Sequence record: NC_052658.1
Length of the DNA: 64,000 nucleotides
Direction: 5' to 3' (one strand)
DNA from: Escherichia phage nepoznato
Below, in pieces: positions 5,356 through 11,523 of this stretch. A program made the position numbers and the translations under genes. Under the pieces are notes generated by a model. It made no database searches and was not told where the DNA came from. It was given only the letters and a program-made list of their open reading frames with translations. Within the stretch, counting starts at the first letter, position 1; the number at the start of each line of letters is the position of its first letter.

Positions 5356-6597
5356 CTATTGATTAATGGTTCCACCAATGAACACAAATGTTTGTGGTTC
5401 AATAACCACTGTTTCACCTGTATTAGGGTTTTCCATGAAACAGTTTTCTGGATATTTTTCTTTCAGTTCTTCAGGTGTGTCAGCAAAAACAGGTTCATCG
5501 TTAACAATGATGAAATATTTTTGTTTACCACACATATCTTCTCTAGGATAACCGCCCTCATCGAGATAAGGTAATACCCAATTCAAAACCCAACTATCTG
5601 CATCGGGGTTACATGTGCACAACATGAAGCTTGTTTCTGATTCTGAACGCATACGTCCCAGAAGATAGAGCATTTCATATTGCGTGAAGTGGGTTAACTC
5701 GTCAAAACCTACCATTGAATACTGTGTACCCTGATGGTTTGTTTCTGCTGTTACGTTATCATTTTCCAAATGATCGAATTTGAGGGTTCCACCACCAGTG
5801 GCTTCAAAAATGATATCCATTGTACTTTCTTTTACGTGTGGTTGTAAAGGAAGATACAAACGTTTTGCTTCTGTAAACAGACCACCTGGTTTACGGTGAG
5901 CAGTGGTGTTCTTACGGAAAAGTATTCCACCAAACAAAGGATCTTTGTAGGCGTATTTTAAAGCTTTCAGCAATAGCAGACGAGACTTGCCGCTATTCCC
6001 AGTAACGAAGCAGTGATCGCCACGTCTAAAGACAATATAGCTGCTTGGAGTCTCAAAACAATATTTCTTATCATCTGTTGAAATAACCTCGTGTATTTTT
6101 AAGTAAGTGCTCTTTTTACCAGGTATGTTAAAAGGAACACGTTTACCGAATGGATTTTCTACATAACCTTGAAGTGGTTTTCCTATTTGCTGTAATGCAA
6201 TAAGATCTCCTACAAGAATCTCGAAATGTTTCTTTGATTTCTTTTTCTTATAGAATACAAAACGGTGTTCCATACTAAGTTCTTGGAACAATCCTACACC
6301 ATTTGTTATTCTGTATAGGTTATCTCCATTTAAATCGTATTCTACAAAATAAGGTGTTACCAATTCTAAACGCTTATTCTTAGGGTTGTATTGGTAAATA
6401 TCCTCTCCCGAATATTCACTAATCTGTCTCCAACCATCTTTTGTAAGATATTCCGTTTCAGCAGAAACACATCCAGCGGCACCACCATAAATCATAACTT
6501 CTGGCATTAAATCCATTGCAAGAGTCTGTTTACCTGGTTGAGCCTTTACTTCAATATCTACTCCAGCTAAACTACCTGCTGCCTTTTTCTTTGCCAC
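5356..6597 (-). CDS. terL: terminase large subunit, N-terminal ATPase segment, with putative mini-intein
   Basis: 413 aa; Walker B-like YSMVGFDELTHF; residues 43-201 start with Cys (CVSAETEYLTKDGWRQISE, Hint block A-like) and end with Asn followed by Ser; removing them joins ...YGGAAG to SGKSRLL..., giving a canonical Walker A GAAGSGKS. Confidence 0.55.
   Translation of the reverse strand: MAKKKAAGSLAGVDIEVKAQPGKQTLAMDLMPEVMIYGGAAGCVSAETEYLTKDGWRQISEYSGEDIYQYNPKNKRLELVTPYFVEYDLNGDNLYRITNGVGLFQELSMEHRFVFYKKKKSKKHFEILVGDLIALQQIGKPLQGYVENPFGKRVPFNIPGKKSTYLKIHEVISTDDKKYCFETPSSYIVFRRGDHCFVTGNSGKSRLLLLKALKYAYKDPLFGGILFRKNTTAHRKPGGLFTEAKRLYLPLQPHVKESTMDIIFEATGGGTLKFDHLENDNVTAETNHQGTQYSMVGFDELTHFTQYEMLYLLGRMRSESETSFMLCTCNPDADSWVLNWVLPYLDEGGYPREDMCGKQKYFIIVNDEPVFADTPEELKEKYPENCFMENPNTGETVVIEPQTFVFIGGTINQ
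5995..6471 (-). other. putative mini-intein (Hint domain, about 159 aa) inside terminase Walker A
   Basis: Codon 6469-6471 is TGT (Cys1); codon 5995-5997 is AAT (terminal Asn); next codon is AGC (Ser+1). Penultimate residue is Gly, not His, so splicing competence is uncertain. Confidence 0.45.
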
Positions 6598-7596: not shown

Positions 7597-7893
7597 TTAG
7601 ATTACGATCTTTTTAGGAACGTCATCTGTATTCTGCACGGCAGGAGTTTCTTCTTCCATAGCTTCATAATGTTCTTCTAACCATTCTTCTACTTGCTCTT
7701 TAATAGCTTTAGCTGCTTGGAAGCGGAGAGGTTTTGCTGCATCCTTATCATTAACAAGTTCAACAATATATCGCATAGCTTCTAAATAATGCTCTGCAAA
7801 TAATTCTTTTACACTTGCTTGCGCCGCATCCATTGCGTAGATCTGTTGCATTTCGGCTGTTGGTCTTCCACGACCACGTTTTAGTTTAGGCAT
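7597..7893 (-). CDS. small basic DNA-binding-like protein
   Basis: 98 aa; N-terminal KRGRGRP (AT-hook-like); RBS AGGAGGA; first gene after promoter 7915-7943. A small-terminase role is possible from position but unproven. Confidence 0.35.
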   Translation of the reverse strand: MPKLKRGRGRPTAEMQQIYAMDAAQASVKELFAEHYLEAMRYIVELVNDKDAAKPLRFQAAKAIKEQVEEWLEEHYEAMEEETPAVQNTDDVPKKIVI

Positions 7894-7914
7894 AATAAAA
7901 TCCTCCTAAACTTT

Positions 7915-7943
7915 ATCTTAACATATAAAAAATAATAAGTCAA
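7915..7943 (-). promoter_or_regulatory. sigma70-like promoter (TTGACT, 17 bp, TAAGAT)
   Basis: Minus-strand reading CTATTGAATAAAACTTGACT...TAAGAT, upstream of CDS 7597-7893. Confidence 0.45.
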
Positions 7944-7960
7944 GTTTTATTCAATAGATA

Positions 7961-7985
7961 GCAAAAAGCCTCCAATAAGGAGGCT
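7961..7985 (-). terminator. intrinsic terminator closing the tRNA operon
   Basis: Hairpin AGCCTCC-TTATT-GGAGGCT followed on the minus strand by TTTTTGCT; located 3' of the last tRNA. Confidence 0.55.
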
Positions 7986-8100
7986 AGTAAATACTGTTAA
8001 GTTGAAATGCTTTATTATAATTGTGCGTTAAGGAGTCGCACCCCTCCATCTTAGAAGGAACCAGGCAAGGTCTTCAAAGATACCGCTGGCAAGCGATATT

Positions 8101-8179
8101 TGGAGGCGGGAATCGGATTTGAACCGATGATCTCCAGCATATGAAACTGGCGAGGACGACCAGACTCCTCTATCCCGCT
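8101..8179 (-). tRNA. tRNA-Met or Ile2 (anticodon CAU), CCA encoded
   Basis: Hand-folded cloverleaf: T-arm ATCGG-TTCAAAT-CCGAT, anticodon loop TTCATAT, D-stem GAGG/CCTC; A1-C72 mismatch at top of acceptor stem. Confidence 0.65.
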
Positions 8180-8185
8180 ATTATG

Positions 8186-8257
8186 TATCCCGTGCTGGAT
8201 TCGAACCAGCATCACAATAAGCTGTGGAACTCTTATCCTGTAAGTCTAACGGGAAAC
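8186..8257 (-). tRNA. tRNA-like element, anticodon arm not resolvable (possible pseudo-tRNA)
   Basis: Canonical T-arm GCTGG-TTCGAAT-CCAGC and a 6 bp acceptor pairing, but no 5+7+5 anticodon stem-loop found by hand. Confidence 0.3.
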
Positions 8258-8331
8258 TGGTTGTTTCGACAAGAATCGAACTTGTATCTCACGATTATCA
8301 GTCGTGGGTTCTACCATTGAACTACGAAACA
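8258..8331 (-). tRNA. tRNA-Ile (anticodon GAU), CCA encoded
   Basis: Acceptor TGTTTCG/CGAAACA, D-stem GTTC/GAAC, anticodon stem CACGA/TCGTG with loop CTGATAA, T-arm ACAAG-TTCGATT-CTTGT. Confidence 0.75.
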
Positions 8332-8394
8332 TTTAAAAGAATATCTCACGTCTGATACAGACTAACCTTTTGTCTGACGCATGAAATATTTAAT

Positions 8395-8471
8395 TGGTCG
8401 GAATTGCAGGATTCGAACCTGCGACCCTACGCTCCCAAAGCGTATGCTCTACCAAACTGAGCTAAATTCCG
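8395..8471 (-). tRNA. tRNA-Pro (anticodon UGG), CCA encoded
   Basis: Acceptor CGGAATT/AATTCCG, D-arm GCTC-AGTTTGGTA-GAGC, anticodon stem TACGC/GCGTA with loop TTTGGGA, T-arm GCAGG-TTCGAAT-CCTGC. The 5' end overlaps the stop of CDS 8462-8980. Confidence 0.8.
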
Positions 8472-8980
8472 TTATTAATGTGCTTCCATGTGGTGTAAGT
8501 AACAATATCCTGTATTGTCCATCTTGAAACTTCATACTTTTTTGCCAATGCTCGTTGACTAATTTTAGTAGTCTCATACTCCATACGGATTTGAATAACA
8601 TCTTTTTCTGATAACTTGGCTTTATTATTTTCTTCCCCTTTAGGATTAACAAGTAATCCTGTGCTAACAGCGTGTGTCATATTCTCATGCTGTGTCGCCC
8701 ACTCCACGTTATCCTTGTGGTTGTTAAGCTTGTTACCATCTTTGTGATTAACAGATTTCTTGTTTTCAGGATTAGGATGAAAAGCTTTACAAACCAAACG
8801 GTGAATCTTAAAACAAATACTTTTTCCTTTTCTACCGCCAATTTTTGTTGCGTGGGTATAGTAACCTGTTTTAGATATGGTTTGGGATAGTATCTTATTA
8901 GTTCTCTTACTTCTTAATCTTCCGAGGTCACTTATTTGGAAGTAATTCTCATAACCAGCTACATCACGCCATTCTTCCAT
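8462..8980 (-). CDS. HNH homing endonuclease embedded in tRNA cluster
   Basis: 172 aa; motif ...VNHKDGNKLNNHKDNVEWATQHENMTHA, closely similar to the HNH protein at 4560-5240. Confidence 0.7.
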   Translation of the reverse strand: MEEWRDVAGYENYFQISDLGRLRSKRTNKILSQTISKTGYYTHATKIGGRKGKSICFKIHRLVCKAFHPNPENKKSVNHKDGNKLNNHKDNVEWATQHENMTHAVSTGLLVNPKGEENNKAKLSEKDVIQIRMEYETTKISQRALAKKYEVSRWTIQDIVTYTTWKHINNGI

Positions 8981-9106
8981 TTATACCTACTTATACCTGA
9001 ATAAAACAATAAATCATTTAATGAAGGGCAACCAGAAGAAGTGTGAGAGAAGGAGAAAACCATGAGTAAAAGAGAAAGTTTTCTGGCAACCCTTTATTAA
9101 ATAATT

Positions 9107-9183
9107 TGGAGCGTTATATCGGATTCGAACCGATGCCACCGACTTGGAAGGACGGGATGCTGAACCGCTAACACTAATAACGC
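9107..9183 (-). tRNA. tRNA-Gly (anticodon UCC), CCA encoded
   Basis: Acceptor GCGTTAT/ATAACGC, anticodon loop CTTCCAA, T-arm ATCGG-TTCGAAT-CCGAT; one U-U mismatch in the anticodon stem. Confidence 0.7.
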
Positions 9184-9196
9184 TTTGTATATATTT

Positions 9197-9226
9197 ACTA
9201 TACTACATTTTACTATCGAATGTCAA
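9197..9226 (-). promoter_or_regulatory. sigma70-like promoter (TTGACA, 18 bp, TATAGT) for the tRNA-Gly unit
   Basis: Minus-strand reading TTAAATAACTATTGACATTCGATAGTAAAATGTAGTATAGT, immediately upstream of tRNA-Gly. Confidence 0.55.
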
Positions 9227-9501
9227 TAGTTATTTAATAGGTGGGACAGTGACGAGTATCCCATTGGGTGACTAGCCCTACGTTCGGTAAGCTAACTTAA
9301 AATAATACAAAACCAAAGTCAAATATTATTCTTCGTTGCTGTCGATGGGAGAGCCGCTTCTTCTTTTGCCCCATCCAACCCTACTCCGGTCAAGTTTCAG
9401 GTAACTCTTTTTGTGATCAACACAATACTAAGAACACTGTCTTTCGAACAGACCTTGTGCACAGGATACGACGATCAATCACAGTGCCCTTAATGTTGTG
9501 T

Positions 9502-9576
9502 TGGTGCTCCCACTCTGAATCGAACAGAGATCCACGGATTACAAAACCGTTGTAATAGCCATTATACTATAGGAGC
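9502..9576 (-). tRNA. tRNA-Thr (anticodon UGU), CCA encoded
   Basis: Acceptor GCTCCTA/TGGGAGC, anticodon stem ACGGT/TCCGT with loop TTTGTAA, T-arm CTCTG-TTCGATT-CAGAG. Confidence 0.65.
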
Positions 9577-9583
9577 AAAGCTG

Positions 9584-9657
9584 GGACTCGGCAGGATTCG
9601 ATACCTGCAATTCCAGAAGCCTATTGGCGACTGGGGGTTTACCTTAACTCTACAAGT
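9584..9657 (-). tRNA. tRNA-like element, atypical (8-nt T-loop, no clean anticodon arm)
   Basis: Acceptor GGACTTG/CGAGTCC pairs and a T-stem GCAGG/CCTGC exists, but the loop is TATCGAAT and the anticodon arm is non-canonical. Confidence 0.3.
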
Positions 9658-9666
9658 CCATAATTC

Positions 9667-9752
9667 TGGCGATGAGTATAGGATTCGAACCTATATTGTT
9701 CTTTCGAACACGGATTAACAGTCCGCCGCTTAAACCATTCAGCCAACTCATC
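9667..9752 (-). tRNA. tRNA-Asn-like (anticodon GUU) with a long variable arm, CCA encoded
   Basis: 86 nt; anticodon arm GCGGA-CTGTTAA-TCCGT; acceptor GATGAGT/ACTCATC; 15-nt variable hairpin GTTC-GAAA-GAAC; T-arm ATAGG-TTCGAAT-CCTAT. Confidence 0.55.
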
Positions 9753-9758
9753 TTAATT

Positions 9759-9846
9759 TGGTGGTGAGTGATGGAGTCGAACCACCCGAATCGCAATGAT
9801 AACAGATTTACAGTCTGCCCCGCTACCCCTACGGAATTAACTCACC
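9759..9846 (-). tRNA. tRNA-Tyr (anticodon GUA), type II, CCA encoded
   Basis: 88 nt; acceptor GGTGAGT/ACTCACC; anticodon arm GCAGA-CTGTAAA-TCTGT; long variable arm; T-arm GGTGG-TTCGACT-CCATC. Confidence 0.75.
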
Positions 9847-9976
9847 TAAATACTAATATTTAAATTCTTTTTAAAATAGCCAGTGTTCACACCACTAACT
9901 ATGAGTTATCGGTAAAGTGGTTACCGCCACTTGCCGAAGATTTACTCTGCTAAAGTAAGCTACATTAAAAAGAACT

Positions 9977-10062
9977 TGGCGGTAGATGTAGGACTCGAAC
10001 CTACACGCCGTTTCCGACTACAGTTTAGCAAACTGTCGTGGCTACCATTTCACCAATCTACC
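9977..10062 (-). tRNA. tRNA-Ser (anticodon GCU), type II, CCA encoded
   Basis: 86 nt; acceptor GGTAGAT/ATCTACC; D-stem GTG/CAC; anticodon arm ACAGT-TTGCTAA-ACTGT; long variable arm; T-loop TTCGAGT. Confidence 0.75.
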
Positions 10063-10067
10063 TAATC

Positions 10068-10158
10068 TGGTGGAAGGAGGGAGAGTCGAACTCCCAAGGC
10101 TCTTTCAAGCTCGGCGGTTTTCAAGACCGTTTTCGTCGCCACATCGATTTGCCCTTCC
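10068..10158 (-). tRNA. tRNA-Ser (anticodon UGA), type II, CCA encoded
   Basis: 91 nt; anticodon region ACGGTCTTGAAAACCG; acceptor GGAAGGG/TCCTTCC; T-arm GGGAG-TTCGACT-CTCCC. Confidence 0.7.
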
Positions 10159-10167
10159 ATACTTATA

Positions 10168-10196
10168 ATCTAACATAAAATAATGTTTGTTGTCAA
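10168..10196 (-). promoter_or_regulatory. sigma70-like promoter (TTGACA, 17 bp, TTAGAT) for the tRNA-Ser unit
   Basis: Minus-strand reading AAAAAACTATTGACAACAAACATTATTTTATGTTAGAT, upstream of tRNA-Ser(UGA). Confidence 0.5.
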
Positions 10197-10392
10197 TAGT
10201 TTTTTAAAACATTTTACCATGAATGGTGACTCCACCAACCCCCGTTCTCCACGAACGGTGCTCTTCGAGCATTTATGTCTTCTAATATAACCGTGGCCTT
10301 TGTTTATAATGTCTGACATACTTGCCTCATTCTCTGCCACCATGATCAGTAGTGGGTTCAAATCACTTGAGCTAATTCATGTTAAAATGTTC

Positions 10393-10467
10393 TGGTGTCT
10401 TTACAAGGAATCGAACCTTGACTAAGAGTTTAGAAGACTCCTGTGCTATCCATTACACCATAAAGAC
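10393..10467 (-). tRNA. tRNA-Arg (anticodon UCU), CCA encoded
   Basis: Acceptor GTCTTTA/TAAAGAC, D-arm GTGT-AATGGATA-GCAC, anticodon arm GGAGT-CTTCTAA-ACTCT, T-arm AAGG-TTCGATT-CCTT. Confidence 0.8.
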
Positions 10468-10469
10468 TT

Positions 10470-10544
10470 TGGTGGCCCTGGCTGGTTTCGATCCAGCTAC
10501 CTATCGGTTATGAGCCGACAGCTCTCCCATTGAGCTACAGGGCC
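10470..10544 (-). tRNA. tRNA-Met or Ile2 (anticodon CAU), CCA encoded
   Basis: Acceptor GGCCCTG/CAGGGCC, D-arm GCTC-AATGGGA-GAGC, anticodon arm GTCGG-CTCATAA-CCGAT, T-stem GCTGG/CCAGC with loop ATCGAAA. Confidence 0.7.
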
Positions 10545-10546
10545 AT

Positions 10547-10743
10547 AAATGTGGTAACAGAGACGCTGACGATTGTAGAGAACCGCTACATTCTCTAAGA
10601 CCAAGCCCAACTTTCAGCGTAAAAGTTCTTGAGCCGAGACTGTTCCTTTTCCTCTTTGGTAGCTAACCTCTGAAGAAGTAGTCTCTAACACTACCGCAGT
10701 GCAAGCCCCCTCTTAACAAAAGTCAACGACCCTGTTACCACAC
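10547..10743 (-). ncRNA. candidate structured leader RNA of the tRNA operon
   Basis: About 197 nt with no ORF between promoter 10756-10784 and the first tRNA; bounded by a perfect 10 bp inverted repeat GTGGTAACAG (10547-10556) / CTGTTACCAC (10734-10743). Confidence 0.3.
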
Positions 10744-10755
10744 TTGATGAACGTA

Positions 10756-10784
10756 TCCTAACATATGAAGGATACGTTTGTCAA
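10756..10784 (-). promoter_or_regulatory. sigma70-like promoter (TTGACA with weak -10) for distal tRNA unit
   Basis: Minus-strand reading TTAAATAACTATTGACAAACG...; same extended -35 context as promoter 9197-9226; -10 hexamer not confidently placed. Confidence 0.35.
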
Positions 10785-10791
10785 TAGTTAT

Positions 10792-11040
10792 TTAAGCATA
10801 TTCTGCTACTTCTTCACTATCTCTCTTTTCCAGAAGAGCAACAACCAAAGCTTCTGCGTTAAAAGTGTTAATTTCAAGATCCATCTCTCGCATCAGAGCC
10901 AAGAAATCAATAACTTTAACATCTTTAGTGATTACAATAGAAGTTGTACCATTGTTTTCAGATGTGTATTTTTCTGGATGGAAAAGAAAAACTGCATTGC
11001 CGTTACCATCTTCAAACACGTGTTTTTCTAATAGAGACAT
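10792..11040 (-). CDS. hypothetical protein
   Basis: Track ORF 10792-11106 trimmed to the ATG at 11040, which follows RBS AGGAGG (MSLLEKHVFEDGNGN...). Confidence 0.4.
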   Translation of the reverse strand: MSLLEKHVFEDGNGNAVFLFHPEKYTSENNGTTSIVITKDVKVIDFLALMREMDLEINTFNAEALVVALLEKRDSEEVAEYA

Positions 11041-11048
11041 TGTTCCTC

Positions 11049-11300
11049 CTAATCTGTTAGTTGTTCGTCCTCTACCAAGTTTGACACGAGAACGTCTGTT
11101 ATACATTGATGCTGATAAACCCTTTCGGGACTATCATCAAAAGCCAAACCTGTGCAAATAGAACAGAGGTCTGATTCCTTGATGACTCCATTTTTATCAC
11201 GTCTGGAGTGGTTTGTCAAATGCCTATTACAAGCACGGCACCTAAAATAAAAACTATTTTGCATATATCCTTCGAACCCCAAATGGGGAGTGATCGGCAT
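11049..11300 (-). CDS. hypothetical Cys-rich small protein
   Basis: 83 aa with CRACNRH...CSICTG (possible zinc-binding pairs). Confidence 0.35.
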   Translation of the reverse strand: MPITPHLGFEGYMQNSFYFRCRACNRHLTNHSRRDKNGVIKESDLCSICTGLAFDDSPERVYQHQCITDVLVSNLVEDEQLTD

Positions 11301-11337
11301 CTCCTCACTTCTAGTTTAGCACGAAGGATATCTTAAG

Positions 11338-11523
11338 TCAACTAGGAATAATTTTATCCTTTTTGGTTTCATAACCAGTCCAATCTAAATCCTCCCAGCC
11401 TTCATCATCGTCTAACACATTGTCATCGTCATAAGATGCAATGTTATAAATAGAACGTGGATTACAAGACATACAATCTTTAATAGGTACATGATGCCAT
11501 TTGCACGGATTCTCGCTAATCAT
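11338..11523 (-). CDS. hypothetical protein
   Basis: 61 aa ORF; first minus-strand gene next to the divergent control region. Confidence 0.3.
   Translation of the reverse strand: MISENPCKWHHVPIKDCMSCNPRSIYNIASYDDDNVLDDDEGWEDLDWTGYETKKDKIIPS

Follow-up and report, generated by a model that had tools for sequence, protein, structure and literature searches.

A conserved, strand-specific RNA structure between a promoter-like site and the first tRNA gene of Phapecoctavirus phages

What occupies the roughly 200 nt that separate the promoter of a phage tRNA operon from its first tRNA gene, and is it there for the sake of the tRNAs or for its own? The question is raised by one end of the tRNA cluster of Escherichia phage nepoznato (NC_052658.1), of which we analysed a stretch of 64,000 nt, hereafter the window. 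The 2.1 kb around this locus show 97-99% identity to phAPEC8-like E. coli myophages (genus Phapecoctavirus, subfamily Stephanstirmvirinae). Ten tRNA genes were identified with ARAGORN and Rfam between positions 8101 and 10544, every one on the minus strand, and the feature must therefore be read as minus strand as well. Read in this way, it does lie between a promoter and the first tRNA, as the first-pass annotation had placed it: the -35 hexamer is at 10784-10779, the -10 element ends at 10755, and tRNA-Met starts at 10544. The features at the head of the operon are as follows.

10547-10745, minus strand: element A, a structured non-coding RNA domain of 199 nt, characterised by its fold, its covariation and the lack of an ORF; proposed first cistron of the tRNA operon
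10470-10544, minus strand: tRNA-Met(CAU), the first tRNA of the cluster, identified by ARAGORN and Rfam
10755-10784, minus strand: promoter P1, with TTGACA, an 18-nt spacer and TG-n-TAGGAT; 10/12 in a sigma-70 consensus scan, with an extended -10

A perfect 10-bp inverted repeat, GTGGTAACAG, had been proposed to close the domain. The repeat exists, whereas the positions first assigned to it (10547-10556/10734-10743) were off by +4 and -2; the 10-mer is found at 10551-10560 on the plus strand and its reverse complement at 10732-10741. Approximately a dozen perfect 10-bp inverted repeats with arms within 200 nt are to be expected by chance per 64 kb (64,000 x 200 / 4^10), and the 10-bp repeat by itself is therefore weak evidence. 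It forms, however, the perfect core of I1 (arms 10547-10581/10711-10745), and the window contains no longer inverted repeat; as minus-strand RNA, I1 gives a 22-bp helix with several G.U pairs and a single U.U mismatch.

The predicted fold of the minus strand is stable, with a minimum free energy of -75.9 kcal/mol and z = -4.9 against 200 dinucleotide shuffles; the corresponding values for the plus strand are -51.8 kcal/mol and z = -2.9. Element A is more stable than all 3,190 segments of 206 nt tiled across the 64 kb on either strand, for which the best value is -65.6 kcal/mol and the mean -40.7 (sd 8.2).

Homologues fall into three lineages; i.e., (i) a phAPEC8 type, with 98-100% identity to the window, (ii) a phiWec179/PsgM04F type, with ~80% identity, and (iii) one IMG/VR contig. 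When a 66-pair model was applied to five representatives, 99.7% of cells were paired and 10 pairs had changed on both sides, whereas slid controls in which the partners were shifted by 1-3 columns have 38-45% paired and 0-2 double-changed pairs. Alignment of 13 distinct sequences to the covariance model gave 99.5% paired, with nine pairs showing compensatory double changes. This covariation rests on few independent events, given three lineages at 80-100% identity, yet it is consistent in every inner helix. The model comprises the following parts.

10745-10723/10569-10547, minus strand: closing helix P1, of 16 bp, a U.U mismatch and 6 bp
10722-10710, minus strand: junction J1/2, CUUUUGUUAAGAG, single-stranded in the consensus, with 11/13 columns invariant across the three lineages
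10709-10705/10601-10597, minus strand: helix P2, constrained in pairing only
10702-10698/10692-10688, minus strand: hairpin P3, with a fully variable loop
10685-10672/10654-10636, minus strand: arm P4 (10636-10685), with an invariant apical hairpin, GGU-UAGCU-ACC, at 10658-10668
10635-10620/10616-10604, minus strand: hairpin P5 (10604-10635), of 6 + 7 bp with an AGA bulge, nearly invariant
10596-10592/10581-10577, minus strand: hairpin P6 (10577-10596), with invariant GUAGC in its loop

Helix P1 holds one arm of the 10-bp repeat (10732-10741) in its 5' strand (10723-10745) and the other (10551-10560) in its 3' strand (10547-10569), the latter ending 2 nt before G1 of tRNA-Met (10544). It is kept in 13/13 sequences with at most one mismatch in each, and only 1/44 of its positions differs between lineages, as opposed to 27% of the element's other positions (Fisher p = 1e-4). 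Compensatory changes in P4 occur at alignment columns 69/112 and 76/100, while columns 77/99 display three pair types (G.U, C-G and U-A) at one pair of the model; P5 has undergone one compensatory swap, from U-A to A-U, at columns 127/139. Three of the five pairs of P6 covary across the three lineages, and RNAalifold places this hairpin in an alternative register, with broken pairs. Constraint is thus of two kinds: P1, P5 and the tip of P4 are held in sequence, whereas P2, P3, P6 and the base of P4 are held in pairing only, a mixture that is typical of functional RNAs. Element A is a real, conserved and strand-specific RNA structure that is not described in the databases checked, and the first-pass proposal, of an RNA in the tRNA operon that is structured, lacks ORFs and could be a processing platform or a small RNA, is supported in substance.

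Two further complementarities involve its single-stranded parts. The GUAGC of the P6 loop is complementary to the GCUAC of the P4 tip, and the model would allow a loop-loop contact between them; both motifs are invariant. Within J1/2, UUGUUAAGAG is complementary to CUCUUAACAA, a boxA-like sequence, resembling the rrn antitermination boxA, GCUCUUUAACAA; this match of 7-10 nt could easily arise by chance and was set aside.

Might the locus nonetheless be a decaying spacer that happens to contain an inverted repeat, or else a degraded or very small protein gene? A bare 10-bp repeat within 200 nt is no surprise in 64 kb, as calculated above, and a CDS of 35 aa is annotated inside element A in the GenBank record of PsgM04F, the only one of ten records inspected over the element to carry any annotation there. 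We nevertheless consider such an origin hardly credible. The fold is an extreme outlier with pairs kept by compensatory change; stops occur in all six frames, with a longest stop-free run of 47 codons in any of five variants, in agreement with the earlier ORF-free description; and indels between the lineages shift the reading frame. Moreover, the element is present in all 69 Phapecoctavirus records found and is retained in every one of these carriers.

The same inverted repeat could, in principle, matter as DNA, with repeats of 22-35 bp serving as protein sites, as a recombination site, or as the ends of a MITE-like insertion. I1 is the longest inverted repeat in the window, both of its arms are invariant in sequence, and compared to the Klebsiella phage discussed below, element A looks like a discrete ~200-bp insertion. 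As DNA, however, the arms are only 77% complementary, and near-complete pairing is reached only by the minus-strand RNA with its G.U pairs; in addition, the ten covarying internal pairs are not explained by a function of DNA ends. There is one copy per genome; the rest of the window (as judged with the covariance model), E. coli genomes and other phage genera all lack it, and no target-site duplication was seen by eye at the element. A role at the DNA level is thus very unlikely in our estimation, and a MITE-like mobile insertion in particular was rejected on the basis of the single copy per genome, across 5,426 E. coli genomes and other phage genera, where multiple copies would be expected.

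How, then, is the element transcribed? Promoter P1 (distinct from helix P1) is conserved in the phiWec179 lineage, where TTGACA is invariant and is followed by a 17-nt spacer and TG-n-TAAGAT. The start site predicted from this promoter is near 10748, ~3 nt before helix P1. Three mismatch-free copies of the motif AACTATTGACA are present in the window, all of them inside the tRNA cluster (10779, 10191 and 10221); promoters P2 and P3 abut their tRNAs, with leaders of ~2-7 nt. A second structure overlies promoter P1.

10744-10784, minus strand: hairpin/palindrome over promoter P1 (inverted repeat I16), 14-16 bp, -17.7 kcal/mol, z = -4.7

The I16 palindrome spans from the -35 hexamer to about +4. 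In phiWec179, the hairpin (-17.9 kcal/mol) is kept via compensatory changes despite sequence differences, and a 9-bp inverted repeat was recognised by eye at the matching site in the Klebsiella relative. I16 could be an operator, or else an RNA hairpin that ends read-through transcripts of the upstream gene. The presence of a hairpin over the promoter suggests that some transcripts read through from upstream, such that element A may not always carry a primary 5' end.

The distribution of the element bears directly on whether the tRNAs need it. The records that contain the neighbouring gene of 61 aa (11338-11523) also number 69 and break down by organism name as those of element A do, with four Salmonella phages in addition. 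Covariance-model searches returned no match to element A in phi92 (Justusliebigvirus) or in Klebsiella phage phi1_175008, nor in the rV5 region examined, which is a region without a tRNA cluster. Klebsiella phage phi1_175008, from the same subfamily, has a homologous upstream gene and the same type of promoter, with tRNA-Met following ~11 nt later; in phi92, the upstream gene is directly followed by tRNAs. Given its absence from these two phages, element A is a Phapecoctavirus-specific insertion of ~200 nt that is not needed for tRNA expression. Sensitive blastn in distant mode gave no match in 5,426 complete E. coli genomes, and a scan of IMG/VR with an 18-mer gave none either. Of the 11 loci hit by a 17-mer from helix P1, one was the true third lineage (IMG/VR contig L014) and the other 10 were matches by chance; a metagenome scan yielded two contigs nearly identical to known lineages, leaving the family at three. 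In Rfam 15, no family reaches its gathering threshold on element A, the families covered including tRNA, tmRNA, 6S, YrlA, GOLLD, ROOL, ribozymes and riboswitches; only tRNAs pass in the window, and permissive scans (E <= 10; 7800-11400 and 10540-10800) placed nothing meaningful on it. The literature searched held no transcriptome or small-RNA study of a Phapecoctavirus.

We lean, with modest confidence, towards element A being a lineage-specific structured non-coding RNA gene, the first cistron of the tRNA operon in Phapecoctavirus. A separate RNA cistron is favoured over an obligatory processing platform because the Klebsiella relative has its promoter directly before tRNA-Met without the element. 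From its placement and structure we infer the following course of events. Host RNA polymerase would start at promoter P1, ~3 nt before the closing helix, and co-transcribe tRNA-Met and tRNA-Arg. The ~200-nt RNA would fold into a five-arm domain, locked by the 22-bp helix that joins its 5' end to the tRNA-Met-proximal sequence. RNase P, cutting at the 5' end of tRNA-Met as general tRNA biology would have it, would generate the 3' end of element A, and/or RNase III would cut within that helix of two turns. A discrete and stable RNA would be expected to persist because the helix encloses its two ends, and the free RNA might then act in trans on a partner through its invariant helix and loops. Element A would thus be an accessory RNA, a type of "RNA moron" that the tRNAs do not need. 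The invariant helix and loops do argue that the sequence of element A is read by something, and the label "leader" given to it in the first-pass annotation, while positionally right, is probably misleading as to function.

A riboswitch or attenuator at this position was considered and rejected, as there is no expression platform, tRNA-Met follows 2 nt after helix P1, and no terminator-like site is present in or after element A.

Element A has company within the cluster. The first-pass annotation had pointed to similar ORF-free spacers further along the operon, and all three are present and ORF-poor; long closing helices are found in two of them (modules B and C), whereas the third (D) is only partly structured.

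10206-10393, minus strand: module B, a helix-closed structured spacer starting at the CCA end of tRNA-Arg; z = -3.6; inverted repeat I5
9862-9977, minus strand: module C, a helix-closed structured spacer starting at the 3' end of tRNA-Ser; z = -4.2; inverted repeat I4
9418-9503, minus strand: module D, a hairpin of 22 bp that directly adjoins the CCA end of tRNA-Thr; nearly invariant across lineages

Ranked by length among the inverted repeats of the window, A comes first, C fourth and B fifth, and the long helices of A, B, C and D all measure 18-23 bp (~two turns), located within 0-2 nt of a tRNA end. The closing helix of module B (11 + 7 bp) is conserved with one compensatory pair, while the centre of the module is replaced in the other lineage. 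Conservation of module C extends to phi92, and its closing helix displays G-C, C-G and A-U at one position and a change from U-A to C-G at another. Spacer D as a whole (9501-9227) has z = -1.9 and is weakly structured beyond its hairpin. Descent of the four spacers from one another was rejected, since no further copy turned up when the window was searched with the element A covariance model; likewise, an origin of spacer D as a decayed gp112 of phi92, which occupies the same position in that phage, was rejected for lack of similarity in tblastn.

This recurrent geometry fits a purely cis-acting account, in which element A would serve the tRNA precursor as an RNase III stalk, a folding insulator, a 5' stabiliser that conceals the end of the transcript or a shield that prevents ~200 nt of untranslated RNA from becoming a Rho loading site, and the excised piece would have no function of its own. 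Approximately two helical turns is the size that RNase III uses, and RNase P, given how it uses the 5' leader, could be hindered rather than helped by a helix that stops 2 nt short of its cleavage site, which would fit a cis-acting role. The inner helices, moreover, drift with compensation, as if the fold alone mattered. RNase III is known to take part in both rRNA-operon processing and T4 tRNA maturation (PMC4810235). Against this, the tRNAs of the Klebsiella relative, and those at P2 and P3 here, are driven with leaders of a few nucleotides; since such leaders suffice, there would be nothing to process away unless the element exists for its own sake. Furthermore, the sequence itself, and not only the pairing, is invariant throughout P1 and P5 and in several loops, which a simple insulator or a Rho shield would not need. 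We regard a purely cis-acting role, the chief alternative, as possible, on the tentative side, and retain the separate RNA cistron as our preferred reading.

A bolder extension of the RNA-gene interpretation is that A, B, C and the D hairpin are unrelated helix-capped modules, each lying flush against a tRNA end and set free as a stable RNA through cleavage by RNase III and RNase P, with A as a trans-acting effector; we consider this doubtful. As such an effector, element A might be a decoy or sponge for a host dsRNA-binding, RNA-processing or defence factor; another possibility is self-association, which would make it a small counterpart of the large phage RNAs ROOL and GOLLD. The parts that would serve in such a role are the invariant 22-bp helix, the palindromic apical loop of P4 (UAGCUA) and the GUAGC loop complementary to it.

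The remainder of the cluster offers several observations in its own right. A possible eleventh tRNA with a long arm lies directly downstream of promoter P2 (10072-10158, minus strand); it was missed by ARAGORN and scores as tRNA-Sec-like in Rfam, below threshold (35.7 bits versus 47). A tRNA-Ser is annotated at the syntenic position in PsgM04F and phi92, the phi92 record marking a TGA pseudogene. A tRNA-like sequence of 90 nt at 9577-9666 (minus strand), missed by both ARAGORN and Rfam, has an acceptor stem, a good T-arm (GCAGGUAUCGAAUCCUGC) and an aberrant, enlarged anticodon arm; its counterpart in phi92 is at 1102-1180 of the region examined (L005), and it recalls the tRNA-like fold of T4 RNAC. 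An ORF with NUMOD4 and HNH_3 domains (8462-8980, minus strand, together with 8476-9002) is likely a homing endonuclease. It sits between tRNA-Gly and tRNA-Pro, where phAPEC8 and phiWec179 have a tRNA-Gln, and its 3' end overlaps tRNA-Pro (8395-8471); ARAGORN detected no tRNA-Gln anywhere in the window.

Inter-tRNA slots are variable cargo sites between phages. Small protein ORFs of phi92 (gp112, gp111 and an rIII-like ORF; 681-1004, 1669-1821 and 125-253 of L005) are located where the window has module D or nothing, and PsgM04F has an extra insertion between the tRNA-like element and tRNA-Thr. At the far end, a terminator-like hairpin at 7967-7985 (minus strand; AGCCUCC...GGAGGCU, then UUUUGC), ~115 nt past the last tRNA-Met, probably ends the tRNA operon. 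An ORF of 413 aa (5356-6597, minus strand) resembles a terminase large subunit on inspection by eye; it lies ~1.5 kb past the 3' end of the cluster and ~4 kb from element A.

Among known systems, the closest analogues of element A are RNAC and RNAD of phage T4 (species 1 and 2), non-coding RNAs of ~120-140 nt from inside a coliphage tRNA cluster. These small stable RNAs of the tRNA region share a transcript with the tRNAs and have no known function (PMC3014915, PMC9697503). Like them, element A lies within the tRNA cluster and on the same strand as the tRNAs, and both clusters contain a homing-endonuclease gene: segB in T4, paralleled by the HNH/NUMOD4 ORF in the window. The differences are considerable. 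No homology in sequence or structure links element A to rnaC or rnaD, the predicted folds differ, and the covariance model run over the T4 tRNA region with filters off gives no match above noise on either. T4 RNAC folds into a tRNA-like shape with a T-arm, whereas element A has no tRNA-like arm; the T4 RNAs are at the 3' end of their cluster, whereas element A is at the 5' end, directly after the promoter; and element A is larger (~200 nt) and closed by a 22-bp helix.

GOLLD and ROOL are structured non-coding RNAs of unknown function that are encoded by phages and prophages, often by tRNA islands, and are far larger, many GOLLD members exceeding 800 nt (PMC12286853). They contain pseudoknots and form multimeric cages, in contrast to the ~200 nt of element A, which neither Rfam model matches even at E <= 10; their hosts are Lactobacillales, rumen and marine bacteria, as opposed to E. 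coli.

The RNase III stalks of rRNA operons, T4 tRNA precursors and T7 early RNA resemble helix P1 in being flanking helices of about two turns near tRNAs. P1 likewise provides a continuous flanking helix of ~20 bp or more, for which cleavage by RNase III is a prediction from analogy. Here, the enclosed domain is not rRNA and has its own conserved architecture; in T4, only an 11-bp hairpin is predicted upstream of tRNA-Gln, where a long helix was looked for. A further parallel is YrlA, the bacterial Y-RNA-like RNAs, in which the two ends of the RNA pair into a long terminal helix that closes off a multi-branched domain, some members being phage-associated. The YrlA Rfam model does not match element A, its sole weak match being on the tRNAs at 8274-8450; element A lacks a tRNA-like module, and we know of no Rsr/Ro gene in its context.

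Element A is thus a new RNA family of a known kind. The T4 RNAC and RNAD RNAs have been known for ~50 years as extra RNAs of a tRNA cluster with unexplained roles, and the larger GOLLD and ROOL also occur at phage tRNA islands; element A adds a compact case of ~200 nt in an easily cultured genus of E. coli phages that is used in phage therapy. Its clear structure model, its defined predicted promoter and processing sites, and the natural empty-site comparator in the Klebsiella relative render it tractable. If it acts in trans, it would afford a handle on what tRNA-linked RNAs do; if it does not, it would document how untranslated inserts are packaged such that a tRNA operon tolerates them. Should the helix-capped modules be released effectors, they would define a new effector class, phage RNAs that the tRNA-processing machinery delivers. 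Although unsurprising in kind, element A offers a clean, tractable instance of a class that has long lacked an explanation.
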